Shown piece after piece: positions 7,899 to 54,556 of a stretch of DNA of 64,000 nucleotides. A program made the position numbers and the translations under genes. Origin of the DNA: Parcubacteria group bacterium Licking1014_17 (GTDB taxonomy: Bacteria; Patescibacteriota; Minisyncoccia; 2-02-FULL-40-12; IGHO2-01-FULL-4-A). How positions within the stretch are numbered: the first letter of the stretch is position 1; each line of letters opens with the position of its first letter. The stretch lies in the NCBI GenBank assembly GCA_007376485.1, contig VMGJ01000004.1:6717-70716 (forward strand), written 5' to 3'. A model generated the notes under the pieces. The model did no database searches and was not told the DNA's origin. It saw only the letters and a program-made list of their open reading frames with translations.

Positions 7899-7904
7899 GA
7901 CGAA

Positions 7905-11068: not shown

Positions 11069-11101
11069 ATATAATCGGAACCTCCGGCGCCAGCCGATAA
11101 T

Positions 11102-13631: not shown

Positions 13632-13748
13632 GCCAAAGTATTGTTAATAGTTTTAATCTTTTCAATTTCCGTTCCAACCGTCTCCCAGGCGGACTGAATG
13701 GAGTGAAGGACGGTCGAAGCCCCGCAACTGTTTACGGGACGTAAGGAA

Positions 13749-14042: not shown

Positions 14043-14149
14043 CTATACTTAAATAACGGATAGCTCTAGACATCTCTTTACCTAGGGTTTTATACCATCT
14101 GTCGTGGCATTTTTTTATGTCATCGAGAACATCAGAATGAATCATTACT

Positions 14150-26305: not shown

Positions 26306-28015
26306 ATGCCTGACGGCAAACAAGCGACAAATCAATCTCCGATTACGCCGGTCCAGACCGGCAAGGAGCAGGAATTGGAGGCAAAATTGGGTGAAATTCA
26401 GGCTAAACACCTTGAAGAAGAGGCAATATTGAGGTCGCAGAAGTCCGGCGTGCCGTATATAGACCTGAAAACTTTCCCGGTTGATACCGGCACCGTGGCA
26501 ATGATTGACGAAGAAGCGGCGCGCAGAGCCAAAGTCGCCGCCGTCGCCAGCAAAGCCGGAGTTATGAGCATCGTTGTAAACGACCCCGACAACCCGGAAG
26601 CGAAATCAATCATTAAGTCATTTGAAGACAGAGGCCTTGTCTGCAAGGTTTTTGTGGTTTCTGAAATCGGGCTCGCGAAAGCCTGGGCCAGATACAAATA
26701 CGCCAAAGAAAGAAAAGCGGAGGTGAGCGGAATGGTAAAAATTGACGAGTCGGCCATTGACGCCCTCGAACAACAAATCAATAGTTTAAAAGACCTCAAA
26801 GACAGGATTGTATCCATATCAATCACGCAACTGCTTGATATGCTCATCGCCGGCGCGTTAAAAATAAACGCCTCCGACATCCATTTTGAAGCGAAAGAAA
26901 CAAACATCCGTTTGCGGTACCGCCTGGACGGTATGCTTACGGACGTGGTTGATTTTTCGCCAACCGGTTATCCGAATTTGCTCAGCAGAATAAAACTTGT
27001 TTCGGGCATGAAGCTTAATATCCACGACAAGCCACAGGACGGACGCTTCACCATTAGGCGCAAGGATTTGGATATTGAAGTGCGTGTTTCGATTCTCCCC
27101 GGACCTAACGGCGAGAATATCGTGATGCGCATACTCGACCCCCGGACTATCCAGCAAAATCTGGAAGATATGGGCATGCGCCCGGACACATTGAGAACAA
27201 TGAACGAAATGCTCAAAAAAACGACCGGCTCAATACTCACCACGGGGCCAACTGGTTCGGGCAAGACCACGACTTTATACGCGTTCATCAGAAAAATAAA
27301 CGCTCCCGATTTGAAAATAATCACCATTGAAGACCCGGTTGAATATCACGTAAAAGGAGTTCAGCAAACCCAGGTGGACCCGGAAGCCGGCTACACATTC
27401 GCTAATGGTCTCCGTGCCATCGTCAGACAGGACCCAGATGTTATATTGGTCGGCGAAATCAGGGACAAAGAAACCGCCGATATCGCCATGCAGGCGGCGC
27501 TTACTGGCCATCTGGTTTTTTCGACGATCCACACGAACAGCGCTGCCGGCACCGTTCCTCGCCTAATCGACTTAGGCGTGAGACCCCAAACCATAGGACC
27601 AGCAGTAAACGCTATGATGGCCCAGCGGCTTTTAAGGCGCCTTTGCTCGAAATGTAAGAAAAAACAGCTTATTAAAAAAGAGGATTACGATTTATTGAAA
27701 AAATATCTGACCGATGTCCCCATGGAAATCATAAAAGAGATTGATATCCCCAAAATAAGCGAAAATATGGAGATATATTACCCGGCTGGCTGCGCCGAAT
27801 GCAATGACACCGGCTATAAAGGCAGAGTGGGAGTTTACGAAATAATATTAATGGACAAGGATTTGGATAAATTAATTGCCCAGATGCCGTCAATTTCGCA
27901 GGTCGAAGAATTAGCGGTTAAAAAAGGAATGATATCTTTATTAAAAGACGGTTTCTTGAGGGTTTTGTCCGGAATAACATCCGTAGAGGAAGTATTAAGA
28001 ATTATAGGCGAATAA
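26306..28015 (+). CDS. type II/IV secretion-family assembly ATPase (PilB/GspE-like)
   Basis: 569 aa; GspE N-terminal domain, Walker A GPTGSGKTTTL, Asp and His boxes, C-terminal tetracysteine CSKC...CAEC. Confidence 0.85.
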   Translation: MPDGKQATNQSPITPVQTGKEQELEAKLGEIQAKHLEEEAILRSQKSGVPYIDLKTFPVDTGTVAMIDEEAARRAKVAAVASKAGVMSIVVNDPDNPEAKSIIKSFEDRGLVCKVFVVSEIGLAKAWARYKYAKERKAEVSGMVKIDESAIDALEQQINSLKDLKDRIVSISITQLLDMLIAGALKINASDIHFEAKETNIRLRYRLDGMLTDVVDFSPTGYPNLLSRIKLVSGMKLNIHDKPQDGRFTIRRKDLDIEVRVSILPGPNGENIVMRILDPRTIQQNLEDMGMRPDTLRTMNEMLKKTTGSILTTGPTGSGKTTTLYAFIRKINAPDLKIITIEDPVEYHVKGVQQTQVDPEAGYTFANGLRAIVRQDPDVILVGEIRDKETADIAMQAALTGHLVFSTIHTNSAAGTVPRLIDLGVRPQTIGPAVNAMMAQRLLRRLCSKCKKKQLIKKEDYDLLKKYLTDVPMEIIKEIDIPKISENMEIYYPAGCAECNDTGYKGRVGVYEIILMDKDLDKLIAQMPSISQVEELAVKKGMISLLKDGFLRVLSGITSVEEVLRIIGE

Positions 28016-36113: not shown

Positions 36114-37211
36114 TTAACTGTTATTTCTTAAAGGCATAATAACATAAACATAATCGTTCATCTTTTCACCTTGAATTAATATCGGACTGCCCTCCCCTGT
36201 AAACTTAATAATAACATTTTCAGTGGGGATTGTCTTCATGCCGTCAAGTAAATAATGGTAATTGACCGAGAATTTAAATGGTTCGTTTCTGGTTAAACAC
36301 TGCGTATTGGCCACAATTTCCCCTTTTTCACTGCTACTTGCTTTTATCTCAAGATTATTTTTCAGAACCCGGATCGTCATATCGTAAATATTCGAGGAAA
36401 ATACACTCGACATTCTGACGCTTTTTTCAAAATCATCCTTACTGACAACGACTGAGCCGATAAATTTTTCAGGAATAATTTTTTTATATTCCGGGTAATG
36501 GCCATCTATCAAGCGAGTGACGAATTGGAGATTATCATTATAAACAAATAATTGATTACTGCTCGTCGCTAAATTAACATCTTCATCGATAAGATCCATA
36601 ATTTTTATTAGCTCCAGTGCGGTTGTCCTTGGAACAATGAGTGATTTTTTCACCGCCGATTTAACCATTACTGTCTTTTCGGCAAGGCGGAAACTGTCGG
36701 TTGCCGCGAATTCCGCGTTAATTGGCGTGATATTAATAAATATTCCGCTCAATTCCGGCCTGGTTTCAGATAAAGACGCCGAATCTATAACACTTACTAG
36801 CGCCTGTTTGAGGTCTCTATTGTTTATCACCATAGAACTACTTTTGTTTATGGTTGGTATTATTGGGAATTCATTGGTTGGGAGCCCAAGTATATTTGTT
36901 TTAAAATTATTTGAATTTATCTGAAGAGTGTTTTTATTATTGACGCTTATTCCGATTTTTTCCCCATTAATATTATTCACAAATTCCGATAAAACCCTTG
37001 CCGGCACCGCTATCTCGCCTTGTTTATCCACCCTAGCGCCGATATTGTAAGAAATTCCCATTTCAAGATTGGTGGCCGACATTAAAAGACTGCTATTTTG
37101 GGTTTTCATTAAAACAGTGCCAAGTATCGGCAGTGATGCGTTTCTGGATATAACCCTTTCAATAATTCTCAGGCCGTTCTGAAACTTCTTTAAATTAATT
37201 TCTATATTCAT
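36114..37211 (-). CDS. dnaN: DNA polymerase III beta sliding clamp
   Basis: 365 aa; three-domain clamp layout, N-terminus MNIEINLKKFQNGLRIIERVISRNASLPIL. Confidence 0.85.
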   Translation of the reverse strand: MNIEINLKKFQNGLRIIERVISRNASLPILGTVLMKTQNSSLLMSATNLEMGISYNIGARVDKQGEIAVPARVLSEFVNNINGEKIGISVNNKNTLQINSNNFKTNILGLPTNEFPIIPTINKSSSMVINNRDLKQALVSVIDSASLSETRPELSGIFINITPINAEFAATDSFRLAEKTVMVKSAVKKSLIVPRTTALELIKIMDLIDEDVNLATSSNQLFVYNDNLQFVTRLIDGHYPEYKKIIPEKFIGSVVVSKDDFEKSVRMSSVFSSNIYDMTIRVLKNNLEIKASSSEKGEIVANTQCLTRNEPFKFSVNYHYLLDGMKTIPTENVIIKFTGEGSPILIQGEKMNDYVYVIMPLRNNS

Positions 37212-38949: not shown

Positions 38950-39087
38950 ATGAAGATAACAACCTACAATCCATCCAAAAGAAAAAGGAAGAGGACCCAT
39001 GGTTTTCTTTCAAGAATGAAGTCAAAAAGCGGTAGAACTGTTTTGGCTCGAAGAAGGAGCAAGAAAAGAAGGCGTTTAGTTGTTTAA
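38950..39087 (+). CDS. rpmH: ribosomal protein L34
   Basis: Manually translated: [45 protein letters not shown] (not in ORF track because <60 aa). Confidence 0.85.
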
Positions 39088-39148: not shown

Positions 39149-39376
39149 ATGGTTTTATTAACCACAAAATTATTTTCGTTTTATAAAAAATATTTATTCT
39201 GGCCTGTTCATGCGCTTTTGCCTGTCAGCGGCGGGTGTCGATTTTATCCGACCTGTTCGGAGTATGCCAGGGAAGCCGTAAAAAATCACGGGCTGGCGGT
39301 TGGTGTTATTAAATCCACCTGGAGAATTTTACGCTGTAATCCTTTTAATAAAGGCGGCGTTGATTTTTGCAAATAA
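39149..39376 (+). CDS. yidD: membrane protein insertion efficiency factor YidD
   Basis: [11 protein letters not shown]...[14 protein letters not shown] signature. Confidence 0.85.
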
Positions 39377-39379
39377 CAT

Positions 39380-40105
39380 ATGATACAAATCTTCAATTTA
39401 ATTATATACAAGCCCATATTCAATGCGCTTATAGCCATTTATAATTTCATACCCGGGCACGATCTTGGTTTGGCTATAATACTTCTGACAATAATCATCA
39501 GACTTATTTTTCTTCCGCTGACCATCCGCACGGTGGCATCCCAGCAGTTAATGGCTAAGATCCAGCCCAAATTAAAAGAGCTCAAAGAGAGGTATAAAGA
39601 CAATAAGCAGGCGCTTGGCGAGGCGACAATGGCTCTTTATAAAGAACATAAAATAAATCCCTTGAGCGGCTGCCTGCCTTTATTGATACAATTCCCGGTG
39701 CTCATCGCCCTTTACAGGGTATTTCTCGCGGTTTTTAAGCCTCAAGACCTACCCTCTATGCTTTATTCTTTCATCAGTAATCCGGGTGTGATAACTCCTA
39801 TCGCCTTCGGATTTTTTGATTTATCCAAAAGAAGCATTGTTCTGGCTATTGTCGCCGGCGTGATGCAATTTATCCAGGCAAGGTCGTCGTTTTCTCTGCA
39901 AAAAAGTTCCGGTTCAATGGATAAAGATTCGTTTGCCTCCAAAATGAACAAGCAGATGATGTATTTCTTCCCGTTTACCATTATTTTAATCGCCTGGGGA
40001 TTGCCGGCGGGCATAACCATATACTGGATTGTAACGACTCTTTATTCGTATGTTGAACAAAAATTGGTTTACAAATATCGCGTGAGTAAAGAGGCAATCA
40101 ATTAA
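39380..40105 (+). CDS. yidC: membrane protein insertase YidC/Oxa1 (short Gram-positive-type form)
   Basis: 241 aa; NPLSGCLPLLIQFPVLIALY conserved core. Confidence 0.85.
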   Translation: MIQIFNLIIYKPIFNALIAIYNFIPGHDLGLAIILLTIIIRLIFLPLTIRTVASQQLMAKIQPKLKELKERYKDNKQALGEATMALYKEHKINPLSGCLPLLIQFPVLIALYRVFLAVFKPQDLPSMLYSFISNPGVITPIAFGFFDLSKRSIVLAIVAGVMQFIQARSSFSLQKSSGSMDKDSFASKMNKQMMYFFPFTIILIAWGLPAGITIYWIVTTLYSYVEQKLVYKYRVSKEAIN

Positions 40106-40131: not shown

Positions 40132-40614
40132 ATGGATAATGCGGAAAAACGCGAAAAAATAATATCGGTTGCCAGGGAGATAATAAAATTTATCGGCGTT
40201 GACGCCGAAATTAACTGGCTTGAAGAAGGTTATGTCGCGAAAACGCCGATAATTTCAATTGAGTCTTTAAGTGGGTCCGGCGTGTTGATAGGAAAAAAGG
40301 GGCAGAATTTGGAGGCATTGGAGCACCTTATCAAGCTCGCGGCGGCTAAGTCGCTGGAAAACGAGATTTTTCCTTTTATAGTCGATGTGAATAAATACAG
40401 GAAGTCACAAATCAGCCATATAGCGAGCACAGCCAGAGAAGTTGCCGTCAGGGTGGCGAGAAATAATAGGGCTGAATTTCTTTCACCCATGTCGGCTTAC
40501 GAGCGGAGAATCGTGCATACTGAACTATCCTCATTTAAAGGAGTGGGCACGGAGAGCGTCGGCAAAGATCCCAATCGGCGCGTGATAATCAAGCCCCAGA
40601 CTAACATCATCTAA
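40132..40614 (+). CDS. jag: Jag/KhpB RNA-binding protein (KH + R3H)
   Basis: C-terminal R3H: SPMSAYERRIVHTELSSFKGVGTESVG. Confidence 0.75.
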   Translation: MDNAEKREKIISVAREIIKFIGVDAEINWLEEGYVAKTPIISIESLSGSGVLIGKKGQNLEALEHLIKLAAAKSLENEIFPFIVDVNKYRKSQISHIASTAREVAVRVARNNRAEFLSPMSAYERRIVHTELSSFKGVGTESVGKDPNRRVIIKPQTNII

Positions 40615-43182: not shown

Positions 43183-44439
43183 CTATCCCTCGTCCGATTC
43201 CATCACGGCTTGTTCAGCCATTGAACGGATATTCATTTCCTCGGTTTTTCTTTCGCCATATTCCTTTACCAGCGGCCGGTATTTTTTATAAGCCGTCTTT
43301 TCTTTTTTATACATATCATAAACTTTCTTGATTTGAGTTGGCCACAAACCAACATACGGTATAGATTCTATTATAAACGTTTTGACGAGGTACTTATACA
43401 CCGCTTCCTTCAGCGCGTTGGTGATTTTTTGCTTTACCGAATCCGATAAGGGCGTGACCGGGACGCTACTTCCAGTATATTCTTGGTACTTTTCTTTGTA
43501 AAGTTCGGATTTCTGATGCGATTTTACGATGCCCGTTCTGATGGTTTCGGCGTTTTCGGACTGCTCATCCATCCTTTTGTTGGTAAAATAAGACACAGTC
43601 CCGATGATAGGTGTTGCTATGAAATTAATAATCGGCGGAATCCAGCATAAAATTATGGTTGCGTCCAAAAACCAGTCGCTGCCGTCATCCAATATCGCCA
43701 GCGTGAACAGAAAACCGTACTTTGTTTTATTGGGCGGGGTTATTTTACCGAGCGCTTTGGCGACTTTCTCGTCTTCTTTCAATGACCTTGGAGTGTCTTC
43801 AAATATTGACTCAAGGGTGTTTTGTTTTTCCAGATTCCTTTGCTCGTATAATTCATATTGCCGTCGGATATCTGACGGCAGTTCTTCTTCGGGCGCGATG
43901 TCGGGTTCGGCTTGTTCTTGTTCGCCGCGCGCGGGCGAAACCGGCTTTTTCTCCTTTTTGATTCCGTATTCATCTTCGGGCTCATCGGGACCGTATTGTT
44001 TTTTAAAGGATTCCGTATAGTCGGTTTTTCTGGGTTTATTGCCGCCCTCCGCGCTTCCTTGGAATCTACTCTCTTCAGGACTAAGCGCAAAACCTGTTTC
44101 TTTGAATTGCTCCCTCCAAAGCTGAGCCTGCTCCGCCTCAAGGGGTTTTAGTTGTTGTTGATAATTTTCTCTTTGAAGCCACAGATCTTGTGCCTGCTGC
44201 CGAAGTGTATTTTTTTCCTCGGGTGTTAAATTTTTGTCTTCCTTTATTTTTTCAATAATTGAATTTCGTTCCTTATCAATAGAGGAGACTTTTTCTCTTA
44301 TCGGCTTTTTTTGCTCTTCAACCCCCTTTCTCTCGACTTCAAACTTCTTTTCTATATCACGATTACTGCCCCCGGGGTCTCTGGCGGTTTTCTGCGGCGA
44401 ATTTACCGCGGTGTCTGTTGTAGAATTATTAGTAGACAC
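43183..44439 (-). CDS. hypothetical membrane protein with long K/E-rich coiled-coil N-terminal region; downstream of the VirB4-like genes (possible T4SS accessory)
   Basis: 418 aa; central TM segment FLFTLAILDDGSDWFLDATIILCWIPPIINFIATPIIG. Confidence 0.4.
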   Translation of the reverse strand: MSTNNSTTDTAVNSPQKTARDPGGSNRDIEKKFEVERKGVEEQKKPIREKVSSIDKERNSIIEKIKEDKNLTPEEKNTLRQQAQDLWLQRENYQQQLKPLEAEQAQLWREQFKETGFALSPEESRFQGSAEGGNKPRKTDYTESFKKQYGPDEPEDEYGIKKEKKPVSPARGEQEQAEPDIAPEEELPSDIRRQYELYEQRNLEKQNTLESIFEDTPRSLKEDEKVAKALGKITPPNKTKYGFLFTLAILDDGSDWFLDATIILCWIPPIINFIATPIIGTVSYFTNKRMDEQSENAETIRTGIVKSHQKSELYKEKYQEYTGSSVPVTPLSDSVKQKITNALKEAVYKYLVKTFIIESIPYVGLWPTQIKKVYDMYKKEKTAYKKYRPLVKEYGERKTEEMNIRSMAEQAVMESDEG

Positions 44440-44470
44440 AGAGGAGAATACAGAGAAATCATATTACAAA

Positions 44471-46267
44471 CTATTGAGCTCCGGCCAAATCTTTCTTGGC
44501 TTGCTCAATTTCGAGCAATTGTCTGGGGTCGGAAGTAATAACCTGGTCCTCGGCGTAAGACGCCAACACCCTGATAGCCACGTGGCCTGTGCCGACGAAA
44601 AACAGCCCGTGGCCGACTTTCGCTTCCAAAAGGAAGAATTTTTCAGAATCGGTCAAGTTGAAAACCTGCTGGATTAAATCAATTGACGCCGGCGACTGCC
44701 TAAGCAGTATCTGCATGGACGAGTTCGTGATAATCGGTTTGCCGTAGGTCGAGCTTAACATATCCGGAACGTCCTGGGATATTGTCGTCAGCCCCAGATA
44801 ATATTTTCTGGCGCGCTTGGCGATTCCGAACAAAAAAGCGGCGCCGGCTTCGTGCCTCATCAGCGTCCACGCCTCGTCCACCACCAGTATCCGTTTTTTG
44901 AGCGATGTCCGCACCTGCGTCCAGATAAAATTAAGCACCAGATACATGGCAATTGGTCTTAGCTCTTCTTCCATATCCCTTACGCTGAAAACGATAAACT
45001 GGTTGTCCAGAAGGACGTTGGTCGGATTATTCAAGAATCCGGCGAAAGTCCCCGATGTGTATTTTCTGACGCGCACCACCAGAGATTCGGTGCCGGTCAT
45101 GCCCTCAAGCACGCTCTGGAAGTCCTGCATCATAGGCGGCGCCATATTCGTCGTGTCCTTGGTGTTGTAAGTTATATCTCTTATGGCGTAAGTTTGCGTC
45201 AGCGCTTCGTCAATAATGGCTTCCTCCTGCGGCGTGAGGTCACCCAGCATCAAGCGTATCAAGCCGGTGAGCACCGTGATATGGGAGCGCAAAACGTCCG
45301 CGAAGCTTTCGTCGGGGCGCGGACTCGGCAAATCAAACGGGTTGATGTGGTTTGAGGAAGCTATTGAGATTTTTACGCTTGTGCCGCCGACCGTATCGCA
45401 GAGATATTTAAATTCGTTTTCCGGGTCGATTATAAACTCGTCCACGCCGAACATCAAACTTCGCAGAAGTTCCAGCTTAATCGTGTAACTTTTGCCGGCG
45501 CCCGATTTGGCGAAAACCACCGAATTGGCGTTTTCCAAACTGAAACGGTCAAATATTATCAGAGAATTGTTGTGGAGGTTGATGCCGTACATAATGCCCT
45601 TATCCCTCGTCAGATTGTATGAAACAAACGGAAACATTGAGGAAATCGGCTCCGTGTCCAGGGAGGTAAGCACTCCAAGCTCATCCTTATTAAACGGCAA
45701 GGTAGAATTGAAGCCCTCCTTCATTCTGAAAGTCGCCGGCTTGATGTAAATCATCTGGGATTCCGTCATCCCCTTGAGCTGTTTTTCTATCTCATTCAAT
45801 TCCTGCTGTGTTTTGGCGTAAACAGTGATATAAACGCCGATCTGGAAAAACCGGTCCGTGCCCTGCTGGAGCTTGTCGCGGAGCATTTCTATGTCCCCGA
45901 TGGCAGTTTCAATGATCGGATCGCGAACTTTGCCTTTAGCTTGGTCTTCCATTGCCTGCGCCTGAAGTTTCGCCAGCTTATCCCTTAATTTTTTCAGAAT
46001 CTGGCCGGTATCCTGCGGATGAATATAAATGGAAGCATCAAAAGAAATGTCTATATTGATTATCGGGGAAAACCAGCCGGTGGTCAGGAAGCGCGGGTAG
46101 GTGGCGATGAAAAACGTGCGCGCGAATGTATCGCCCATCTGGATATAATTCGCCGTGATGGTAATCGAAGGCGGCGCGATTAATTCGTCAACGCTCTTGT
46201 TTTCTCCGGCAAGCGAATCTATGGGCACTGTTGATATTTGCGGCGATAATTGCTGGTCTTCGTTCAT
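44471..46267 (-). CDS. VirB4/TrbE-family type IV secretion ATPase (ATPase part; N-terminal domain encoded by the adjacent upstream ORF)
   Basis: Walker A FAKSGAGKSY, Walker B RILVVDEAW (DEAW typical of VirB4/TraC), TTISQDVPD motif. Confidence 0.75.
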   Translation of the reverse strand: MNEDQQLSPQISTVPIDSLAGENKSVDELIAPPSITITANYIQMGDTFARTFFIATYPRFLTTGWFSPIINIDISFDASIYIHPQDTGQILKKLRDKLAKLQAQAMEDQAKGKVRDPIIETAIGDIEMLRDKLQQGTDRFFQIGVYITVYAKTQQELNEIEKQLKGMTESQMIYIKPATFRMKEGFNSTLPFNKDELGVLTSLDTEPISSMFPFVSYNLTRDKGIMYGINLHNNSLIIFDRFSLENANSVVFAKSGAGKSYTIKLELLRSLMFGVDEFIIDPENEFKYLCDTVGGTSVKISIASSNHINPFDLPSPRPDESFADVLRSHITVLTGLIRLMLGDLTPQEEAIIDEALTQTYAIRDITYNTKDTTNMAPPMMQDFQSVLEGMTGTESLVVRVRKYTSGTFAGFLNNPTNVLLDNQFIVFSVRDMEEELRPIAMYLVLNFIWTQVRTSLKKRILVVDEAWTLMRHEAGAAFLFGIAKRARKYYLGLTTISQDVPDMLSSTYGKPIITNSSMQILLRQSPASIDLIQQVFNLTDSEKFFLLEAKVGHGLFFVGTGHVAIRVLASYAEDQVITSDPRQLLEIEQAKKDLAGAQ

Positions 46268-46272
46268 ATTAG

Positions 46273-46923
46273 TTATAATTTACCCCCCGGGTTATAGTAG
46301 CCGTATAAAACTTTTTTTAATTCCTCTTCTTCAAGTACGATGGTAGTGATGCCCATTCCGCCAAGCCCGCCGCAGATGACGCCGATTCTCTGATCCAGCT
46401 GGATTTTAAGCGATTCAAATTCCTGGTCGGTCATTGACGCCGCCGCGCCGCCGGAAGATTTAAACATGCCCGTGAACTCGCTAAGCAGTCCCTTGGTTCT
46501 CTGCTGGGCGCTGGCTGTTTCCAGCCTGTAAAACGGGACTGAAATGTAAAAATGTTTCTCCATGATATTGGACAGTTCCGATAATCCCTTAATAAACCTC
46601 GCGTATTCGGCAACCTGTATTTTTAAGAGCTCATTGGTGATGCCGGTTCCCGCCTCTTCTATGGATTTCAGATACGGCTCCAAATCCATCTTCCGCGAAT
46701 TAATGAGAATCTGGGTCGTGAAATCAACGGAATTGATAAAGTTCTGGAACGCCTGGACCAGTGCCACCTTTTCATCGGAAGATTTCAAGTCAAAATTGAC
46801 GGAGCCGACGTCAATAACCGAACGCAAAGAACCGTCTTTCATTATCGCCACCGATTCCCTAATTTCGGCGATCAGAACGAAATCTTTAGTGGTTTTTGCC
46901 GTTGGTTTTTTTGAATCAAACAT
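46273..46923 (-). CDS. VirB4 N-terminal (CagE/TrbE/VirB-type) domain as a separate ORF
   Basis: 216 aa; FVLIAEIRESVAIMKDGSLRSVIDVGSVNFDLKSSDEK... matches the VirB4 N-domain pattern; 5-nt gap and +2 frame offset to the ATPase ORF across a C6 homopolymer (46283-46288). Confidence 0.55.
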   Translation of the reverse strand: MFDSKKPTAKTTKDFVLIAEIRESVAIMKDGSLRSVIDVGSVNFDLKSSDEKVALVQAFQNFINSVDFTTQILINSRKMDLEPYLKSIEEAGTGITNELLKIQVAEYARFIKGLSELSNIMEKHFYISVPFYRLETASAQQRTKGLLSEFTGMFKSSGGAAASMTDQEFESLKIQLDQRIGVICGGLGGMGITTIVLEEEELKKVLYGYYNPGGKL

Positions 46924-46929
46924 ATTTGT

Positions 46930-47334
46930 TTACTGGTATTTTTCAATTATAACATCACCCTCTTTGGTTTTGGTAGCTTCCTGCTGTTCCTGCGCCGCCA
47001 CCGCTTCTTTCCTGCCTTCCTCGCTCGGGATTATCTGGCCCATCTGCTGGCTGGCCGACTCGTTGGTGTAGGAATATTTTTTGCCGCTCAATAAAAACGA
47101 CAAAGTTATACCGATGTATTTGGGGAGCGGGATGCCTTCAGGTTTAGCAAAAGCCAGCGCCGCGAAAATTATGGCTATCGGAAGGGAGGCGATAATAAAA
47201 AAGACCCCGCTCAGCGCGAAATGGAGAAAAAAAATAATAACGGCGCCGATAGCGACGAAAATAAACTGGCGCAAAGTGAAAGGGCCGACTATTTTCGGTT
47301 CCATTTCTATAAATTGTGGCACTTGGTAGCGCAT
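46930..47334 (-). CDS. PrgI/VirB3-like small 2-TM T4SS protein
   Basis: 134 aa; QVPQFIEMEPKIVGPFTLRQFIF + two TM helices, directly upstream of VirB4 as in Gram-positive T4SS. Confidence 0.55.
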   Translation of the reverse strand: MRYQVPQFIEMEPKIVGPFTLRQFIFVAIGAVIIFFLHFALSGVFFIIASLPIAIIFAALAFAKPEGIPLPKYIGITLSFLLSGKKYSYTNESASQQMGQIIPSEEGRKEAVAAQEQQEATKTKEGDVIIEKYQ

Positions 47335-47906
47335 TATTTTTGGGTGTCGCTTAAATCAATAACGTCCGAGTAATTTCTGAACTGGGGCGGCTGGGCTGGC
47401 GGAGGCGGTGGGGGTGTTTTGGTTGGTTCGGTGGAAACGGCTGATGGGGCGGACTGGACTGGTTTTTGGACTGACGCCGGCGGTTGCGTTATCACAGCCG
47501 GTCTATACGGCGCGGGACCCCTTCTGGCAATCTGCGACTGCACTTTTTTAATGTCTTCCAGCGCCGGCGTCAGCACTTCGGCGATAAGATTATTCACCAA
47601 TTCCCGGGCGAGATTATCATCTGTGCCGAGCTTAGTTTTGACCATATTCACCATATTTCCGATGTATTCGTCGCCGATAAGAATATCGCGGATGATAATG
47701 GCAAATTTTACGCCTTGCTCACTGCTTATTTTATTACTCGCTATAAGCCCACATATAAACTCCGCGACAGGCATATCTATAATTAAATCTTTGATTGTTA
47801 CTGGTATTTTTGCCAACTTGGACTCAAAAAATTCCATAGCAATCTGGTCCATCTTTCCGGCAAAATATGGAGTGAAGGTAAAATATTGTTCTGTGCTTAT
47901 TCCCAT
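47334..47906 (-). CDS. hypothetical cytoplasmic protein with Pro-rich C-terminus (T4SS cluster member)
   Basis: ORF, translationally coupled (1-nt overlap) to PrgI-like gene. Confidence 0.4.
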   Translation of the reverse strand: MGISTEQYFTFTPYFAGKMDQIAMEFFESKLAKIPVTIKDLIIDMPVAEFICGLIASNKISSEQGVKFAIIIRDILIGDEYIGNMVNMVKTKLGTDDNLARELVNNLIAEVLTPALEDIKKVQSQIARRGPAPYRPAVITQPPASVQKPVQSAPSAVSTEPTKTPPPPPPAQPPQFRNYSDVIDLSDTQK

Positions 47907-47933
47907 GACTATTATTTATTAATCACATGGTCG

Positions 47934-50657
47934 TTAGTACTTTGATCGTATTGCGCTGGTAGTTTGGGAAAGGAATCTACCCAATATCCTGGGGCTAACG
48001 CTTGTTTTAACCATAGCTACCATAGCTGGATCATTGTGGAAGTCAAAACTCAACTCTCTCAATCCCTGAGCGTCAATACTCTTTATCTTTTCATCCAACA
48101 GTCTATTGATTTCGGCGTCTTTGGCCGTTGGTGTGTTCGCAACAGTACCAGCCTGCACTGCCAATTCCGTCATATGATTAGCCCATATCTTGGGATTATA
48201 CGCATTGACGGTTTTCACTAACTTGGCACCTTCAGCAGAATCTTTGCCGCCCAAAGCTTCAAGCGCATTCTTAAACCCGTCATAGGAATCAATCTCCTTG
48301 TCTTCATTCATCGCGTTAACCAATTCTTTATGCCTGTTTCCAATTTCTTTGAGTTGTTCCATAACATCCGCAAGTTTCAACGCCGCCTGCCTTTCATTTT
48401 TCTTGCTTAGGTCATAAACATTTCCGGCGGAATCTTTAACCTTAATAGCCTCAACCCTGATTGATTCGTAAAACTCTTTCTTTTCGTTCGGGTCAGCATA
48501 CATCTCCGCGACTTTATTTATGTCGCCAATCTCATTAATCTTATTATTTTTGGCCAATTGACTGGCAGCGAGCTTGCGAGTTTCAACATCGGCTTCTGTT
48601 TTGAGTCCTCCGACTTCTTCGCCTTTTGCCAATTTAAGAAGATCAGAATCAACCCCAGGCGTACTGCTGATGTCACTAATTTTAAGTTGCTTGATACCGC
48701 CCTTCTTGAGTGACGCAACCAGCGCTTTGCCTTCAGCTGTGTATTCGCCGCCGGCGTTCTTGAGAGCTTTCTTAAATTCTTCAAATGAACCAACTCTCTG
48801 ATTTTCAAGCTGGATAGCCATCGCCGCCGCGCCGGTTTTACCCCGCGCACCAGATTGCCCTTTAATGAAGTCCAATTTCTCCTGGTCGGTTTTCTTTGAA
48901 TTCATTATTCTTTCAATTCTTGACCTCTCGTCGGTAAATTGTTTCGCTCTTTCTCCTTGATACATTCCTGCCGCCGCGCTGCCGCCGAACAATTCGGCGG
49001 TTCTCATCTGAGTCCGTCTGAAGTTCTGGGCGCCAAAGAAGCGGGTGCCGCCTATGCCGACACCGCGTTCCGCTATATCCTTGCCTCTGGCGGTTAAGCC
49101 GGTCTTGATGCCCTCAACCACTCTGGCGCCCGGGACAAAGCGTTTGATACCGGCGGACATCCTGCCGAAAGAAGTAGCCCCCGCTCCGGCCAGTTGCCCC
49201 GTAATGTCAAAAGCCAGCTTCAATCCGTACACCAGAAATATCAGAGTCAGGACGTAAAAAATAATATCATTGAGAGGAAAAACATCAAAAAAAGAACCGC
49301 TCGGTCCGGAACCCACCACCGCACCCACACTGGCTTTGCCTTGGATGAAAATAACGGCAAACATAAGGAAAAACAGGTATATGGGCACAAAGAAAGTCCA
49401 TTGGAGAAAATTGCTCCACCACTTTGTCCAGGTAGAAGCCTTTAACTTCGGTATCATATAGCCAAACCATGCTATCGGCGAAAGAATCATCAGAAACCAC
49501 AAAATCGGGATGCGGACAAACGCGAACGTGGTGGCTGTCAGAAGAGCGAACAGCGCAAAAAGAAGGAAGATTATTATAAATATACCGCCTATAATCGGGT
49601 GACCGGCCATATAAGCGGCCCCGGCCGAGAGAGTGCCATCGGCATTCGCCGCTCCGGCAGTCGTAAACGTGCTTATGGCGAGCCCGTTCGCAAGACTACC
49701 GTCCAAAGTGTTGCCGAATTTGGTAACTTCGTTTAAAAATACCTGGCTTATGCCTCCCGAAAGCTCCACTAAATATCTGGCTATTTCCATACTGAAATTA
49801 ATCAGCAAGGCGGAAGCGAGAAACTTAGGCATCAAGCTAGACCAGACATATTCTTTGATGTTAAAGATAGTGCCGAAAGCCATAATTATTAAAACTAAGA
49901 TGAAGAACAAATTGACAAAGTTTTTTATATTCATCCAGCTGTCTATGACCACGTCTGGCGGTTTGCTGGAAGCTATGCCCAAGAGTATAACCAAGATACC
50001 GGTAACCCAGCCCATAACGGTTGTTAAAAGGAACTCTATGGCGCCAATTATGACAAGAGCCAGGTCCGTCAGGCAGGCTTTTATGTTGGTCACATACGGA
50101 AACGAACAGGTACTCTTATTTTGTGAATTTATCGCAACTTTTATCGGGTCAGTTTGATTGGTGACCCGCAAATCATAAGCGCCTTCTGATAATTCATCGC
50201 TTAATTTCTGTTTTTCATTTCGTATATCCTCGCATCGGCTTTTATTTGGTCCGTTTGAACCGATTTGGTTCTTGCAATCCAGCTTTACCCATTCATCATC
50301 CAGTAATTGGGTCTGTAATCTGTTTTTCTGTTCGCCCAATACGACTATTTTATCGGCAATATCTTTGCAATCGGAGCTTATCTGCCCACTTTTGATTAAA
50401 TCGTCACAGCCCAAACTCACATATACGACACCCGCTGCCTTTAGCTGTTGGTCTATGTATTCTATTTGCTGTTCGGGCGTTCTACCGGCCGGACTTGCCG
50501 AAGAATTGCCCGCCGGTGCCGATCCCGCGTCGCCTCCTTGAGCCCAGGCAGGACTAGCGCTGCTGGCTGATAAAATTAAAAAAACGAATGCGCCCGCCGC
50601 CATGGCAAATATTTTTGCCGCAAGTTTAAATTTGCTTTTTTGCTTGGGAATTATCAT
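47934..50657 (-). CDS. VirB6/TrbL-like large polytopic membrane protein (signal peptide, Cys-containing extracellular domain, ~8 TM core, ~400-aa coiled-coil cytoplasmic tail)
   Basis: 907 aa; hydropathy layout typical of T4SS channel component; position upstream of PrgI-like/VirB4. Confidence 0.45.
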   Translation of the reverse strand: MIIPKQKSKFKLAAKIFAMAAGAFVFLILSASSASPAWAQGGDAGSAPAGNSSASPAGRTPEQQIEYIDQQLKAAGVVYVSLGCDDLIKSGQISSDCKDIADKIVVLGEQKNRLQTQLLDDEWVKLDCKNQIGSNGPNKSRCEDIRNEKQKLSDELSEGAYDLRVTNQTDPIKVAINSQNKSTCSFPYVTNIKACLTDLALVIIGAIEFLLTTVMGWVTGILVILLGIASSKPPDVVIDSWMNIKNFVNLFFILVLIIMAFGTIFNIKEYVWSSLMPKFLASALLINFSMEIARYLVELSGGISQVFLNEVTKFGNTLDGSLANGLAISTFTTAGAANADGTLSAGAAYMAGHPIIGGIFIIIFLLFALFALLTATTFAFVRIPILWFLMILSPIAWFGYMIPKLKASTWTKWWSNFLQWTFFVPIYLFFLMFAVIFIQGKASVGAVVGSGPSGSFFDVFPLNDIIFYVLTLIFLVYGLKLAFDITGQLAGAGATSFGRMSAGIKRFVPGARVVEGIKTGLTARGKDIAERGVGIGGTRFFGAQNFRRTQMRTAELFGGSAAAGMYQGERAKQFTDERSRIERIMNSKKTDQEKLDFIKGQSGARGKTGAAAMAIQLENQRVGSFEEFKKALKNAGGEYTAEGKALVASLKKGGIKQLKISDISSTPGVDSDLLKLAKGEEVGGLKTEADVETRKLAASQLAKNNKINEIGDINKVAEMYADPNEKKEFYESIRVEAIKVKDSAGNVYDLSKKNERQAALKLADVMEQLKEIGNRHKELVNAMNEDKEIDSYDGFKNALEALGGKDSAEGAKLVKTVNAYNPKIWANHMTELAVQAGTVANTPTAKDAEINRLLDEKIKSIDAQGLRELSFDFHNDPAMVAMVKTSVSPRILGRFLSQTTSAIRSKY

Positions 50658-51883
50658 TGTCCGTTTTCCAAATTCTGCATCTGCTCATCAAAACTCGGCG
50701 GCTGCTGGCTGGTAACACACTGGTCACGCTGGCATTTTCTCGTTTCTTCCCCGACGCAGATATTATAAGCGTTTGGATTCCCCGTCGTTGTCGGGTTATT
50801 GCATGAAATTCTCGCCATGGCTTCACACTGGGAATCGCATTTTTGATTGTTGGCTGTTTGCGCGCCGGCGGCTGATCCTTGCCCCTGTTGGCGTATACCG
50901 TCCGCCTGATTCTGCAAAATCTTGTCGTCCGCGGTTTGCAAGGCGGCGTCGGTGACATCGGTGATGACCCCCGAGCACAATTCATTGCCGCCGCAGAGGT
51001 TTTTCAGCCGGTTTATAACTATACCCATGGCCACAGTCACAAGTTCGCCAATTTCGTCCGTGCCGGTAACCCAGTCGAATTCTTTGGTTATAACCCCCGC
51101 CGCCGCTTCCGCTGAAACCTTACCCGGGGTCACAATAGTATCCAGGAGAGAATCGGTGACTCTTTTACCTATAAAACCGCTCCCGGCGACACCTTCATCA
51201 ATGCTTGCCTGCTTGCTCTCATCCTTTATCTTGGCTAAATATTCGCGGCTTTGAAGCAACACGGAAAAGAAGTTATTTTCCGGCGCGAGGAGTGCTTCAG
51301 CCGCTTCCCAACCGCCGTTGCTGAAATCTTTTTTGAAATCGTCTATTGAGAAGGCTTTTGCCGTGCCGTCGGGCATGACTATCGTTTCCGGCAGAGTGCA
51401 CTGGGTCATTAAATTGAAAGGCAAGTCTGCGTCAATTCTTCGACGGTCGGGGCTGGCTATTTCAGCCTCGCTTTCTGTCAGTTTTCTGGCTCCGAATATT
51501 TGCCCTATCACTGGCGTGAGGTATTTGCACCACGTGGGTTCGTAAGACGTCTCACTGCCGTAAGCGGCAAGAGAAATATTCATCCAGCCCAACTTAGAGC
51601 CCAAATCCGTATTTGTCATCCGCCAGTTCATGTAGTCGGTTATCCATAACGGCGAGTTTTTTACCCCGCCGGTCACGATATTTTCCAGCACGCCCGAGCT
51701 CATTTTCCGGAAAACCATATTCGCCAAAACGCGGGTCAGTGGATCTAAAACTAATTCCTTTTTCAGTAAAAGCCATTGGGCCACTCCTCCGGCGTGAGCT
51801 GTTTCAATTGGATAGACAAAAATACACAACGGAATAATTGCGACTAGTATTGATATAATGACCGATTTTCGAAGCTGTTTCAT
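50654..51883 (-). CDS. secreted hypothetical protein with Cys-rich C-terminus
   Basis: Signal peptide; C-terminal CDSQCEAMARISCNNP...CVGEETRKCQRDQC. Confidence 0.4.
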   Translation of the reverse strand: MKQLRKSVIISILVAIIPLCIFVYPIETAHAGGVAQWLLLKKELVLDPLTRVLANMVFRKMSSGVLENIVTGGVKNSPLWITDYMNWRMTNTDLGSKLGWMNISLAAYGSETSYEPTWCKYLTPVIGQIFGARKLTESEAEIASPDRRRIDADLPFNLMTQCTLPETIVMPDGTAKAFSIDDFKKDFSNGGWEAAEALLAPENNFFSVLLQSREYLAKIKDESKQASIDEGVAGSGFIGKRVTDSLLDTIVTPGKVSAEAAAGVITKEFDWVTGTDEIGELVTVAMGIVINRLKNLCGGNELCSGVITDVTDAALQTADDKILQNQADGIRQQGQGSAAGAQTANNQKCDSQCEAMARISCNNPTTTGNPNAYNICVGEETRKCQRDQCVTSQQPPSFDEQMQNLENGQ

Positions 51884-52938
51884 TGCGGAGATTGTCCGTT
51901 TAGTAAATTCAATGTTTTAAACAGCGTTGTTTCGGGCACGGCCAGTTTGCCGTCGCTTATCAATTTGCCGAATCCGCTGATGATTCCGGTAAACTCGGAA
52001 AAATAGCCGGTGATTTGATCCAAAGCCACCAAACCGAGAACGGGATCGTCGCTGGCTTTTTTAAGCTGCAGAAAATCATTCGAAAGATTCAGAGAAACCT
52101 CCATCAGATGTTCGTGCCATTTTCTGAATCTCGGTGGTACCCTGATAGTCGATAATCTGTCGTGCATATCGGAATAAGTGGAAGATATGGTCGTCAGTTT
52201 TTCGCTCGCCGCGTTATTGTCGCCCATTGTGAAATCCTGAACCATTTTTATCAGCAAGGGCTGTTGGCCGTTGTATATGGAAATGAAATTTGGCTCTATC
52301 ATTTCCGAAAAATCCGAAAGATATTTTTCTTCGGATGCTTTCATATCGGTCGAGGAAATAATTTTGCTTGCGTCCACCTGCAGTTTCGGGAGCGCTTCAT
52401 CAAGCGTCGCCATGGCTATTAGATTAAGAGTGTTCGTCGGGTCGGCGCTGTCTTTCATGGCTAAAGTTATGTCTCCGGCCAAATATCCGCCGACAGTTCT
52501 GTTTATCAGAGCCATGGTTAGATTTTTTGAGTTCATATCCAGCGCGACGGCTTTGTCTTTCGCGGCTTTGTTTTCGTCAAAACTCGGGTCGTAACCGGCG
52601 GCGACCTCTTCGCCGTCAATATAGCCGTCGTTATCGGTATCTTTAAGCATTGTGTCAGATGCATATCTTGATTCAGCGGCGTCAGGTAAGCCGTCGCCGT
52701 CTTTGTCGGTTACGTTGTTGTAGATAAGCACGGGCTGTCGCGCCGCGCCGGCTTCGGTAACCGTCCCGTCGCTGTTTGTTATCGTGCCCGATATGTTGGC
52801 GGTCAGATGGGAACCGAAAAATCCGAAAATCCTAAAAACAAAAACCAAAGCCAGCGCCGAAAGCACGCCCAGAACGGTTTTTAATTTTGGAGACATCCGC
52901 CTTAAATCACTTATGAACTTTTTTAAAGGATAATCCAT
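51880..52938 (-). CDS. secreted protein with thrombospondin-type-3-like Ca-binding repeats (DKDGDGLPD, DTDNDGYIDGEE)
   Basis: ORF translation. Confidence 0.4.
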   Translation of the reverse strand: MDYPLKKFISDLRRMSPKLKTVLGVLSALALVFVFRIFGFFGSHLTANISGTITNSDGTVTEAGAARQPVLIYNNVTDKDGDGLPDAAESRYASDTMLKDTDNDGYIDGEEVAAGYDPSFDENKAAKDKAVALDMNSKNLTMALINRTVGGYLAGDITLAMKDSADPTNTLNLIAMATLDEALPKLQVDASKIISSTDMKASEEKYLSDFSEMIEPNFISIYNGQQPLLIKMVQDFTMGDNNAASEKLTTISSTYSDMHDRLSTIRVPPRFRKWHEHLMEVSLNLSNDFLQLKKASDDPVLGLVALDQITGYFSEFTGIISGFGKLISDGKLAVPETTLFKTLNLLNGQSPQ

Positions 52939-54556
52939 GTTTTTTGAAATTATTTATAAGGCAAAAAACGGCTACGCAAAAGAATGGAATTAATATCCAA
53001 TCGCCAAACCTATTATACCATGTTTTTTTGCGCGGGATGTATATAGTTCCTGTTAATAACTCCGAGTCCTTGTTTTGGGCGGTTTTCGCGGTCAACCCCT
53101 GCCCGTCAACGGCGTAAGAAATGCCCGTGTTTGCCGCCAAAATTATGGGCGTGTTGTTTTCGGCGGCTCTAAGCTTTGCATTGGCTTGGATTTGGCTTAC
53201 CATGGCGCTGTTTCCGTTGAGAAAACCGGTGCTTGATAAGCCGGCAATCACGTCCGATGTTTTAGCCACACCGCGCACGAATCCCGGTGAAAAGAAATCG
53301 GAGCAGATTGCGGAACCGACGCGGAACAAACCGGCGAAATCCACGCCTTTCGGCTCATTCTGTTTCCCGGGCGCGAGATCTCTCGTCCTGCTGAACGATA
53401 CGACGGTTTTGGGCGAGAGAAGTTTTATCGGCAGCTTGAGTATGTATGGGATAAATTCGCCGCCGGGGGACAAAATTCTTTTATCGTAAAAACCGATATA
53501 TCCTTTTTGGCTGTCTATGTAAAGCGCGCGCGAACGGAATTTCCCGTTTTCGTCTATGAATCTCGTCGGCGCCACGGTCAGCACTTCTTTTCCGGGGAAT
53601 ATCTTCTTGAAATATTTTGTTATTTGGTCGGCGCCGAGAAAATTGGAAATATTTTTGATAAAACTTACTGCTTCAGGAAGCACGACCAGCTGGACCTTCG
53701 GGTCCGCGGAATTAATTTTATTCATCAATTCAAGCTGGCTGTTAAAAATTTCCAGCTGTTCCTTGGGCGCGAGGTCGTATTTGCTCGGCTCGTTTGCCTG
53801 GACAATCGCGTATTCCAAGCTTTGGCCGCCGCTCGGCTGATTTTGCGGTTTGGATTTTGGAATTGCCACAAAACAAAGGGCCGCGAGAATAACCGCACCG
53901 GCTACGTAATAACGACGGGGCGGATTTATATTTAATCTTTTTTGATAAAGGGCGAGCAGAAAATAATTTGCCGCCGCGATAACCGTCGTTATGCCGTAAA
54001 TTCCCGTAATCGGCGCGAGCCATATTATAAGCCGGCTGTCCGTGAATAAATACGCAAGGTTGCCGATTGTCCAATGGAATCCGAGTACGCTTCCGGAGCC
54101 GAGCCACGCCACGCCGAAAAAATATGTTCTTAAAAATTCGGCAATTGCGAAAAATGAAACGGCGATGGCAAGTTCAAAATACCACTTTCTCTGGCGCCGG
54201 AGTTCTAACCCCAGAAACAACGAGAACAATCCCCAGAACAGCGAAAAAGCCAGCGTGCTGTAAAGCCAGACAAATGCCACGGTAACAAACGAAAGCAAGG
54301 GACTCATGCCCAGCAGTTCCGCCAGATTGATTGAGAAAAACCATCTGACCGTGTAACCAAAATAAACCGCGCCGGCAGCGAACCCGAGCAAAAAAAGAAA
54401 CTTCTTATTTTTATTTTCCTTTGAAGCGGCGTAAATCGCCCATAAAAGAGGAACCAGCGCAAACCACGCCAAATAACGCAAATATGCGGCTGAAGCGGCG
54501 ACCAAAAGAAGCCCTGAAACTATCGCGGGAATAATGAAACGGTAATATTTTGCCAT
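52907..54556 (-). CDS. lnt: apolipoprotein N-acyltransferase (Lnt; polytopic N-terminus + CN-hydrolase domain)
   Basis: 549 aa; catalytic Glu in LVVLPE, Lys in YDKRILSPGGEFIPY (cf. E. coli YDKHHLVPFGEFVP), Cys in SAICSD. Confidence 0.7.
   Translation of the reverse strand: MAKYYRFIIPAIVSGLLLVAASAAYLRYLAWFALVPLLWAIYAASKENKNKKFLFLLGFAAGAVYFGYTVRWFFSINLAELLGMSPLLSFVTVAFVWLYSTLAFSLFWGLFSLFLGLELRRQRKWYFELAIAVSFFAIAEFLRTYFFGVAWLGSGSVLGFHWTIGNLAYLFTDSRLIIWLAPITGIYGITTVIAAANYFLLALYQKRLNINPPRRYYVAGAVILAALCFVAIPKSKPQNQPSGGQSLEYAIVQANEPSKYDLAPKEQLEIFNSQLELMNKINSADPKVQLVVLPEAVSFIKNISNFLGADQITKYFKKIFPGKEVLTVAPTRFIDENGKFRSRALYIDSQKGYIGFYDKRILSPGGEFIPYILKLPIKLLSPKTVVSFSRTRDLAPGKQNEPKGVDFAGLFRVGSAICSDFFSPGFVRGVAKTSDVIAGLSSTGFLNGNSAMVSQIQANAKLRAAENNTPIILAANTGISYAVDGQGLTAKTAQNKDSELLTGTIYIPRKKTWYNRFGDWILIPFFCVAVFCLINNFKKHGLSFKKVHK

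Follow-up and report, generated by a model that had tools for sequence, protein, structure and literature searches.

Gene content and setting of the cluster

The stretch of the Parcubacteria group bacterium Licking1014_17 genome analysed here (64 kb, hereafter the window) carries on its minus strand a genuine run of type IV secretion system (T4SS)-like genes. These include genes for a VirB6/TrbL-like membrane protein, a PrgI/VirB3-like membrane anchor, a TrsD-like protein of 216 amino acids (aa), and a 598-aa VirB4-type ATPase (Table 1). The last two are separate open reading frames (ORFs), and comparison with homologues indicates that this division of VirB4 is a genuine two-gene arrangement. 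An earlier sequence-only reading of the same DNA had described a minimal T4SS-like cluster. Its ORFs and coordinates were reproduced by the ORF map, in which a 409-aa ORF that it had left unmentioned (50654-51883) lies within the same range. The notion of a stripped-down T4SS-like cluster lacking conjugation functions in an ultra-small bacterium is upheld, with PrgI and VirB4 exceeding curated family cut-offs. The word "minimal" is less apt, as at least four more syntenic genes belong to the cluster (encoding the 352-, 409-, 190-, and 418-aa proteins), in addition to a neighbouring PD40 gene.

Table 1. Genes and features of the T4SS cluster, followed by nearby housekeeping genes (positions in the window)
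Feature	Position	Strand	Remarks
TSP3-repeat protein, 352 aa, membrane-anchored	51880..52938	-	Pfam TSP3_bac; opens the conserved synteny block
Cys-rich anchored extracytoplasmic protein, 409 aa	50654..51883	-	conserved position; no family match
VirB6/TrbL-like polytopic membrane protein, 907 aa	47934..50657	-	remote similarity, via relatives
Helical-bundle protein with Pro-rich tail, 190 aa	47334..47906	-	conserved family, no named match
PrgI/VirB3-like membrane anchor, 134 aa	46930..47334	-	Pfam PF12666
TrsD-like/"TraC-like" (PF26593) protein, 216 aa	46273..46923	-	remote homologue of the VirB4 N-terminal domain, covering roughly its first 200 residues
TrsD-like/virB4 junction	46268..46288	-	G6 run 46283-46288; TAA 46273-46275; 5-nt spacer; virB4 ATG at 46267
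VirB4-type ATPase, 598 aa	44471..46267	-	second half of the N-domain plus P-loop C-domain
Membrane-hairpin protein, 418 aa	43183..44439	-	gene immediately 3' of virB4
PD40/TolB-like beta-propeller protein with N-terminal anchor, 376 aa	42032..43162	-	
dnaN	36114-37211	-	
dnaA	37454-38836	-	
rpmH (L34)	38950-39087	+	
yidD	39149-39376	+	
yidC	39380-40105	+	
jag/khpB	40132-40614	+	
ksgA	54520-55344		

In the ORF map, adjoining genes of the run mostly overlap slightly or leave gaps of less than 35 nt, and ATGA-type overlaps flank the gene for the 409-aa protein on both sides (51880-51883 and 50654-50657). A scan of the operon for promoters and terminators returned promoter-like counts at chance level and no interpretable site.

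The cluster was compared with three contigs reached via distant homologues and with 80 genome loci retrieved with VirB4 (individual loci are given L numbers), using profiles for the TrsD-like protein and VirB4. In nearly all of the 62 Patescibacteria loci, the genes for PrgI, the TrsD-like protein, and VirB4 occur in the same order as in the window. The surroundings are likewise shared. In the window, PcrA, KsgA, and Lnt precede the T4SS genes, which are followed by a flippase, Jag, YidC, YidD, L34, DnaA, and DnaN. L001 has the same order: PcrA, KsgA, and Lnt, then the TSP3, 409-aa, VirB6-like, 190-aa, PrgI, TrsD-like, and VirB4 genes, and, with other genes interspersed, PD40, the flippase, Jag, YidC, DnaA, and DnaN. 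The housekeeping synteny is found in L003 as well as L001, and these relatives are at 52% and 31% identity. The T4SS locus of Paceibacteria has been reported to adjoin dnaA, dnaN, rnpA, ksgA, and rpmH (PMC12102498), and the window cluster lies near dnaA, dnaN, ksgA, and rpmH. No match to rnpA was detectable by tblastn anywhere in the window (best E 0.17); in L001 and L003 this gene is placed between rpmH and yidC. Because the same housekeeping order is kept in relatives at such divergence, the cluster is, as judged from gene order, a vertically inherited, origin-proximal chromosomal core locus and not a mobile element.

The VirB4 ATPase and the TrsD-like protein

The 598-aa protein belongs to the NCBIfam family conju_CD1110 (NF045971; 358.6 bits against a cut-off of 325, E 6.5e-107), aligning to profile positions 176-732 of 752 and leaving the first ~175 positions uncovered. 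It also matches Pfam P-loop_TraG (E 2.4e-24) and the VirB4 C-domain of PDB entry 4ag5 (E 2.9e-45). A Walker A motif (253-AKSGAGKS-260) and a Walker B/DEAW motif (460-ILVVDEAW-467) are present, and G256, G258, K259, S260, D464, E465, and W467 are 100% conserved in the 120 closest homologues. All of these homologues are 561-614 aa long, share 64-72% identity with the window protein, and carry Patescibacteria names wherever they are named. The motifs and the CD1110 score thus bear out the sequence-only assignment of a VirB4 ATPase with Walker A/B and DEAW motifs.

The uncovered portion of the profile is matched by the 216-aa protein, with scores below the NCBIfam family cut-offs: it aligns to positions 15-157 of NF045971 (E 4.7e-5) and to positions 97-233 of NF045975 (VirB4_plasma; E 1.6e-7). 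The latter profile represents a Mycoplasma VirB3-VirB4 fusion family and is tiled in order by PrgI (positions 28-124, E 0.004), the TrsD-like protein (97-233), and the ATPase (292-876); NF045971 is similarly tiled by the TrsD-like protein (15-157) and the ATPase (176-732). Given the ordered tiling of NF045975, the three genes are collinear with a single-chain VirB3-VirB4. Relatives of the 216-aa protein reach E 1.9e-9 against the TrsD/TraD family NF041427.

Homologues of the TrsD-like protein form 115 clusters, extending down to 31% identity. Their lengths are narrowly distributed (191-241 aa in 111 clusters, 273 aa in one, and 125-163 aa in three), and none is of VirB4 length. The "TraC-like" domain PF26593 is assigned in the precomputed annotation of an identical protein and of all 114 others; a local Pfam copy without the PF26593 model gave no match. 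Tyr210 and Asn211 are nearly invariant in the family alignment and form part of a conserved C-terminal YNP tail.

An AlphaFold (AF2) model built with 61 homologues had a predicted local distance difference test (pLDDT) score of 83.4 and a predicted template modelling (pTM) score of 0.70. In a Foldseek search of the PDB with this model, the 14 best matches were all to R388 T4SS entries, 12 of them to VirB4-sized TrwK chains (661-937 residues). The best match had E 7e-4, probability 1.0, and TMq 0.49-0.51 over ~200 columns, consistent with the fold of the VirB4 N-terminal domain. Together, the profile coordinates and the predicted fold support the 216-aa protein as a free-standing homologue of the VirB4 N-domain. 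The sequence-only reading had proposed this identity, which is supported here as remote homology.

The VirB4 division is not a frameshift

On the minus strand, the junction reads ...AAC CCG GGG GGT AAA TTA TAA ctaat ATG AAC. As the sequence-only reading had observed, the two ORFs lie 5 nt apart in different frames beside a homopolymer at 46283-46288 (C6 on the plus strand, G6 on the coding strand). That reading had left four explanations standing: a genuine split gene, a frameshift pseudogene, programmed frameshifting, and a sequencing error. The homologues, the junctions of other loci, and an indel simulation favour the first and speak against the other three.

A sequencing or assembly indel in the homopolymer, or a recent pseudogenising frameshift, would imply that the true gene is a single ORF of ~814 aa. 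Such an explanation is invited by the close spacing of the two ORFs in different frames beside a 6-nt run, by their summed length (814 aa, equal to that of a classical VirB4), and by the existence of fused forms elsewhere, such as an 834-aa protein of a Staphylococcus aureus plasmid, the N-terminus of which is the TrsD-homologous segment. However, all three frames carry stop codons between the G6 run and the virB4 ATG, and every product of simulated indels of +/-1 and +/-2 in the run ends at residues 214-219. The 1-nt indel that the sequence-only reading had envisaged could therefore not restore one VirB4 ORF. Additionally, the 115 clusters of short TrsD-like proteins and the 120 VirB4 homologues of ~590 aa speak against this explanation. 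The same division, which that reading had thought worth seeking in related genomes, is present in 54 independent Patescibacteria loci that contain one copy of each gene. In these loci the two genes occur in any relative frame (23, 18, and 13 loci, respectively), with gaps of -47 to +206 nt (median 18 nt); example spacers include one of 2 nt, one of 3 nt that is in frame with a stop, and one of 128 nt in a Moranbacteria locus. No fused TrsD-VirB4 form was found among the Patescibacteria loci compared. The probability of an indel or pseudogene is consequently negligible. Programmed ribosomal frameshifting at the G-run, producing a fused VirB4 beside the separate products, merits no more credence. 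There is indeed a homopolymer near the upstream ORF's stop codon, but in the ATPase frame a TAA directly follows the run (PGG*) and blocks read-through, and the sequence, spacing, and relative frame of the junction vary among relatives. The run merely encodes Pro-Gly-Gly after the conserved Tyr210-Asn211 motif. The junction does not, then, behave as a frameshift site, as the ORFs are not joinable by a +/-1 shift at the run and the junction is not conserved.

Homologue lengths, the junctions of the 54 loci, the three-frame stops, and the indel simulation thus exclude sequencing error, pseudogenisation, and programmed frameshifting. By these comparisons, the divided VirB4 is a genuine and ancient two-gene arrangement and the norm of the lineage. 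It is also found beyond it. Separate TrsD-like and virB4 genes occur in Chloroflexota and in approximately 20 actinomycete genomes (with ATGA or TGATG overlaps), and a Pontibacillus megaplasmid encodes a 274-aa TrsD-like protein followed by a 621-aa VirB4 of the CD1110 family. In 18 of 19 actinomycete loci (L066-L083, from Nonomuraea, Actinomadura, Spirillospora, and Streptomyces; L067 is cut), PrgI-like and TrsD-like segments share one uninterrupted reading frame directly 5' of a short VirB4. An example is the ORF at L066:8784-9980, although such coordinates run from stop to stop in high-GC DNA and the true starts are uncertain. This suggests a VirB3-TrsD fusion with a separate ATPase in these loci. 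The ORFs were also considered as members of the NCBIfam SCO6880 family, which they do not match.

Annotators of genomes of Patescibacteria, Chloroflexota, actinomycetes, and Bacillota should avoid calling a short VirB4 that follows an ORF of ~215 aa a frameshift or pseudogene.

Two further sets of ORFs attracted attention during the comparison. The VirB4 ORFs of L055, L057, and L058 (774-809 aa) were considered as possible TrsD fusions and rejected, as their extra ~200 residues are of Pro/Ala-rich low complexity with no match to the TrsD profile. In L039 (9141-9822), L060 (779-2750), and L078 (9917-11686), a TrsD-like or VirB4 gene is broken within a domain into two adjacent ORFs; unlike the window, these are candidates for true frameshifts or assembly errors.

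PrgI and the VirB6-like protein

The 134-aa protein encoded directly 5' of the TrsD-like gene, a position that PrgI occupies in about 70 loci, belongs to Pfam PF12666, with a score of 48.2 bits that exceeds the gathering threshold of 27 (E 1.6e-12, positions 2-90 of 91). A hydrophobic transmembrane (TM) hairpin spans residues ~22-62. Both observations agree with its prior description as a PrgI/VirB3-like protein with two TM segments.

In the 907-aa protein, a signal peptide and an extracytoplasmic N-terminal domain (~160 aa) accompany at least seven hydrophobic segments and a C-terminal soluble domain of ~400 aa, in which no significant internal repeats were found. It shares 35% identity (E 3e-81) with the syntenic protein of L001. 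Its membrane core (residues 260-492) is 26% identical (E 4e-12) to a protein of the Moranbacteria locus L002, residues 170-361 of which match Pfam TrbL at E 3.5e-8. Such TrbL matches occur in 3 of 32 members of the family, and the family is encoded 5' of PrgI in 51 loci. On the basis of its topology, its gene position, and its transitive homology, "VirB6-like" is a reasonable label for this putative channel component. The sequence-only designation as VirB6/TrbL-like hence stands with regard to the polytopic character of the protein and its homology via relatives; a direct match to a TrbL/VirB6 hidden Markov model is not among its supports.

Accessory genes of the cluster

The 190-aa protein is cytoplasmic, with no TM segment, and its Pro-rich tail was confirmed as previously noted. 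It has 222 representative homologues at E<=1e-3 and no family match in Pfam or NCBIfam. Its AF2 model (pLDDT 87.9) has helices over residues 5-128 followed by the disordered Pro-rich tail, and no match to a PDB fold was obtained (best E 1.7). The family is encoded between the VirB6-like and PrgI genes in 13 loci and ends in a conserved N-[IV]-[IV]-[DN]-L motif (N-[IV]-[IV]-[DN]-L-[KRS] with the next position). This motif follows a variable disordered linker, which is 300-500 aa in relatives, and in sequence it looks like a docking peptide.

The 418-aa protein combines a charged, low-complexity, lineage-specific N-terminal portion (225 residues) with a conserved C-terminal membrane-hairpin domain (~226-418), the gene for which directly follows virB4 in 35 loci. 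It is similar to a 220-aa protein of L001 (E 2e-9) and has no family match in Pfam or NCBIfam. It was also considered as a VirB2-like pilin and rejected, as no similarity to the T4SS_pilin protein of L003 was found.

Two predicted surface proteins are encoded at the 5' end of the run. The 409-aa protein is extracytoplasmic, with one N-terminal hydrophobic segment (signal or anchor) and 11 cysteines. It matched nothing in Pfam, NCBIfam, or PDB sequences, a profile search of the PDB was also empty, and a word-indexed homologue search returned only the protein itself. Homologues nevertheless lie between the TSP3 protein and VirB6-like genes in 12 loci. The 352-aa protein has one N-terminal TM segment and matches the calcium-binding repeat TSP3_bac of Pfam (E 1e-7); its homologues are encoded directly 5' of the 409-aa family gene in 13 of the 14 loci having the 352-aa family. 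At the opposite end, the 376-aa PD40 protein matches a TolB-propeller family of NCBIfam below the cut-off (E 1.6e-8), and homologues are encoded 3' of virB4, at variable distance, in 17 loci. On this positional evidence the PD40 protein is regarded as a conserved neighbour and not a demonstrated part of the machine. The conserved unnamed genes of the cluster are candidates for the missing envelope-spanning parts of the machine.

Conjugation functions

Conjugative T4SSs are encoded together with a relaxase and a type IV coupling protein (T4CP). By Pfam, no relaxase and no VirD4/TcpA-type coupling protein was found in any ORF of the 64-kb window. A VirB2-like pilin near virB4 is frequent, but not universal, in Patescibacteria (PMC12102498), and none was detected (VirB2/T4SS_pilin, PF18895 and PF04956) in the window ORFs scanned, small intergenic ORFs included. 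The statement of the sequence-only reading that relaxase, VirD4, and pilin are all absent thus holds by Pfam for the window.

Proposed function and alternative explanations

The most consistent interpretation, and a very likely one, is that the region encodes a chromosomal, vertically inherited T4SS of a Paceibacteria-class Patescibacterium that is related to the MPF-FATA class and most likely serves host interaction rather than conjugation. In the R388 structure, it is the VirB4 N-domain (residues 15-400) that VirB3 embraces and through which VirB4 dimerises (PMC9259494). By analogy, PrgI would hold the TrsD-like protein at the membrane, and the latter would complete the N-domain of the 598-aa ATPase in trans by contributing the missing first half. 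PrgI would thereby anchor the TrsD-like protein and a VirB4 hexamer beneath a channel formed by the VirB6-like protein, and VirB4, by hydrolysing ATP, could power assembly and/or transport across the single membrane. An outward-facing part that contacts the wall or the host may be formed or decorated by the extracytoplasmic components (the 409-aa protein, the TSP3 protein, and the N-domain of the VirB6-like protein).

A role in host interaction (effector export, or import of host macromolecules at the contact site) seems most likely, because neither relaxase nor coupling protein is encoded here and because a related cultivated species cannot grow epibiotically without the system. In Southlakia epibionticum, orthologues of TrsD, PrgI, VirB6, and VirB4 were essential for epibiotic growth by transposon sequencing (Tn-seq), as cited in PMC12102498 and PMC12857230, and by the same data this requirement is independent of ComEC-mediated DNA uptake.

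Two other functional explanations were considered. The cluster could be what is left of a decaying integrative and conjugative element (ICE), now functionless and stripped of its relaxase and coupling protein. The VirB4 does belong to the CD1110 family, typical of conjugative elements of Bacillota, and no relaxase or T4CP is nearby. Decay is difficult to reconcile, however, with genes that are all intact, tightly packed, and overlapping, with conserved catalytic motifs, or with the retention of gene order and dnaA-side housekeeping context among divergent Patescibacteria sharing 31-57% identity. The cluster is not flanked by an integrase or repeats, and orthologues are essential in S. epibionticum; a remnant is accordingly very improbable. 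A machine for DNA uptake or release, comparable to ComB of Helicobacter or the T4SS of the gonococcal genetic island (GGI), rather than one for host-directed transfer or nutrient acquisition, is somewhat easier to entertain but still unlikely. The sequence-only reading had suggested DNA uptake; the T4SS has no relaxase, T4SS loci of the class ABY1 co-localise with comF, recG, and radA (PMC12102498), and a PilB-type ATPase is encoded in the window. Yet no competence genes adjoin the cluster. Moreover, competence of S. epibionticum requires type IV pili and ComEC, and in this species comEC can be deleted whereas the T4SS is essential (PMC12857230), so that the essential role of the T4SS is distinct from uptake through ComEC.

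Several observations weigh against the proposed host-interaction T4SS and the part assignments on which it is built. No VirB1-like hydrolase, VirB2-like pilin, or VirB8-like protein was found in the 64-kb window, which leaves the envelope-spanning part unexplained. Of the 790-kb genome, 64 kb was searched; the other ~726 kb may hold a coupling protein, relaxase, or pilin array, and T4CP homologues are far from virB4 in many Patescibacteria (PMC12102498). The TrsD-like protein scores 25.5 bits against a cut-off of 200 for TrsD/TraD (NF041427; E 1e-5, positions 12-94 of 201) and thus falls outside that family, and its Foldseek match to VirB4 is modest (TMq ~0.5, E 7e-4). As the Foldseek output does not give the aligned TrwK residues, the N-domain assignment relies on the NCBIfam profile coordinates. 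For the 907-aa protein, no direct match to Pfam TrbL/VirB6 (PF04610) was obtained even at E<=10, and its family profile reaches only E 0.21 against R388 TrwI/VirB6 (7o3v_F) among PDB sequences. Finally, the assembly of the parts, the physical interaction of PrgI, the TrsD-like protein, and VirB4, and the cargo are all inferred.

A broader idea, offered as speculation and rather doubtful, is that the VirB3 anchor, the TrsD-like N-half, and the VirB4 ATPase are separable modules that evolution has cut differently. The window and some Bacillota have a separate gene for each, in actinomycetes PrgI and TrsD apparently share one chain and the ATPase is separate, and classical systems unite TrsD with the ATPase, or all three. 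A free TrsD-like protein might then be a regulated or exchangeable docking adaptor and, if it controlled ATPase docking, would constitute a new control point of T4SS assembly. The unnamed partners, namely the 190-aa helical protein with its docking-like motif, the membrane protein encoded 3' of VirB4, and the 409-aa and TSP3 surface proteins, might be lineage-specific parts of a host-feeding machine.

Other features of the window

Additional features lie outside the T4SS cluster. At 4153-11740 on the plus strand, a module of a ~1000-aa surface protein (DUF11, Ig-like) followed by a sortase occurs twice in tandem (4153-7230 and 7263-7898; 8063-11068 and 11102-11740), and its sequence fits a monoderm wall-anchored adhesin pair. 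Two proteins are encoded in a GC-poor segment at 12-14 kb (0.37): one (12321-13631) combines a DUF4379 treble-clef zinc finger with CapR homology, and the other (14150-14677) is antitoxin-like with a SocA/Panacea domain; the segment from 12321 to 14677 may be a defence or toxin-antitoxin islet. A second low-GC stretch (22-24 kb, 0.37) coincides with a 1,011-aa Type ISP restriction-modification enzyme (22757-25792, minus strand; Type_ISP_C E 7.6e-79), which adjoins a BRO-N domain protein and a winged helix-turn-helix protein, and the region is possibly an acquired island. The PilB-type T2SSE ATPase (26306-28015, plus strand; E 1.9e-119), an ATPase of type IV pilus assembly, has an MshEN domain and is encoded beside ruvB, not in a pilus operon. 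Lastly, a 297-aa protein (58835-59728, plus strand) contains an FG-GAP-like repeat as well as three dockerin type I repeats (E 9e-34), which are unusual for a genome of the size of Licking1014_17.

Comparison with known systems

In the classical Gram-negative system of R388 (TrwM/TrwK; PDB 7o41 and 8rtb), the ATPase C-domain is homologous to that of the window VirB4, and the predicted fold of the 216-aa protein matches TrwK. R388 differs in that TrwK is one 823-aa chain and in that its diderm system has VirB7/9/10, VirB2/5, VirB11, and VirD4, none of which was found in the window.

Among monoderm systems, the MPF-FATA subclass of staphylococcal plasmids pGO1 and pSK41 (TrsC-TrsD-TrsE) similarly has a separate gene for a small, remote homologue of the VirB4 N-terminus (TrsD), located immediately 5' of that for its VirB4 ATPase (TrsE). 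Unlike the window cluster, these systems reside on plasmids and are conjugative, encoding both a relaxase and a coupling protein, and the pGO1 subclass has no recognisable VirB6 (PMC12102498); the window family resembles TrsD/TraD NF041427 at 25-38 bits against the cut-off of 200. The homology of TrsD with VirB4 is stated in PMC12102498, and TrsD is not mentioned in the main text of Guglielmini 2014 (PMC4027160). The Pontibacillus plasmid NZ_CP062975.1 also resembles the window, encoding a large membrane protein, a 116-aa protein, the 274-aa TrsD-like protein, and the 621-aa VirB4. CD1110-family loci of Bacillota (CTn2-type), whose VirB4 is ~33% identical to that of the window, differ in having an Mbov_0395-type pilin-like gene and a peptidoglycan hydrolase beside VirB4 and in residing on mobile replicons.

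The closest counterparts are those of Patescibacteria themselves. Quinonero-Coronel et al. 2025 (PMC12102498) surveyed T4SSs across this group and found its VirB4 sequences to form a monophyletic clade, which is related to the MPF-FATA class of monoderms. TrsD was the commonest T4SS component (2,272 homologues, 1,664 of them next to virB4), PrgI/VirB3 and VirB6 homologues were widespread, VirB2-like pilins were frequent, relaxases were almost absent, and a T4CP was seldom near virB4 (PMC12102498). The assembly analysed here (GCA_007376485.1; Licking1014_17, Paceibacteria, 790,175 bp) is VirB4-positive in the genome table of the same survey. Both the gene set and the division of VirB4 are thus already known, in a survey that includes this genome, and carry little weight as a new finding; the biology is nonetheless important, as cultivated Patescibacteria cannot live epibiotically without this machine. 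The window differs from S. epibionticum ML1 (functional data: Wang et al. 2023), which has an essential six-pilin array, in containing no VirB2-like gene, and its accessory genes (those for the 190-, 409-, and 352-aa proteins and the C-domain of the 418-aa protein) are unnamed in PMC12102498. In its core, the window cluster is like the T4SS of the Patescibacteria clade: both have a TrsD homologue beside VirB4, together with PrgI/VirB3 and a VirB6-like protein, both lack a relaxase and T4CP near virB4, and both have dnaA, dnaN, ksgA, and rpmH in their vicinity.

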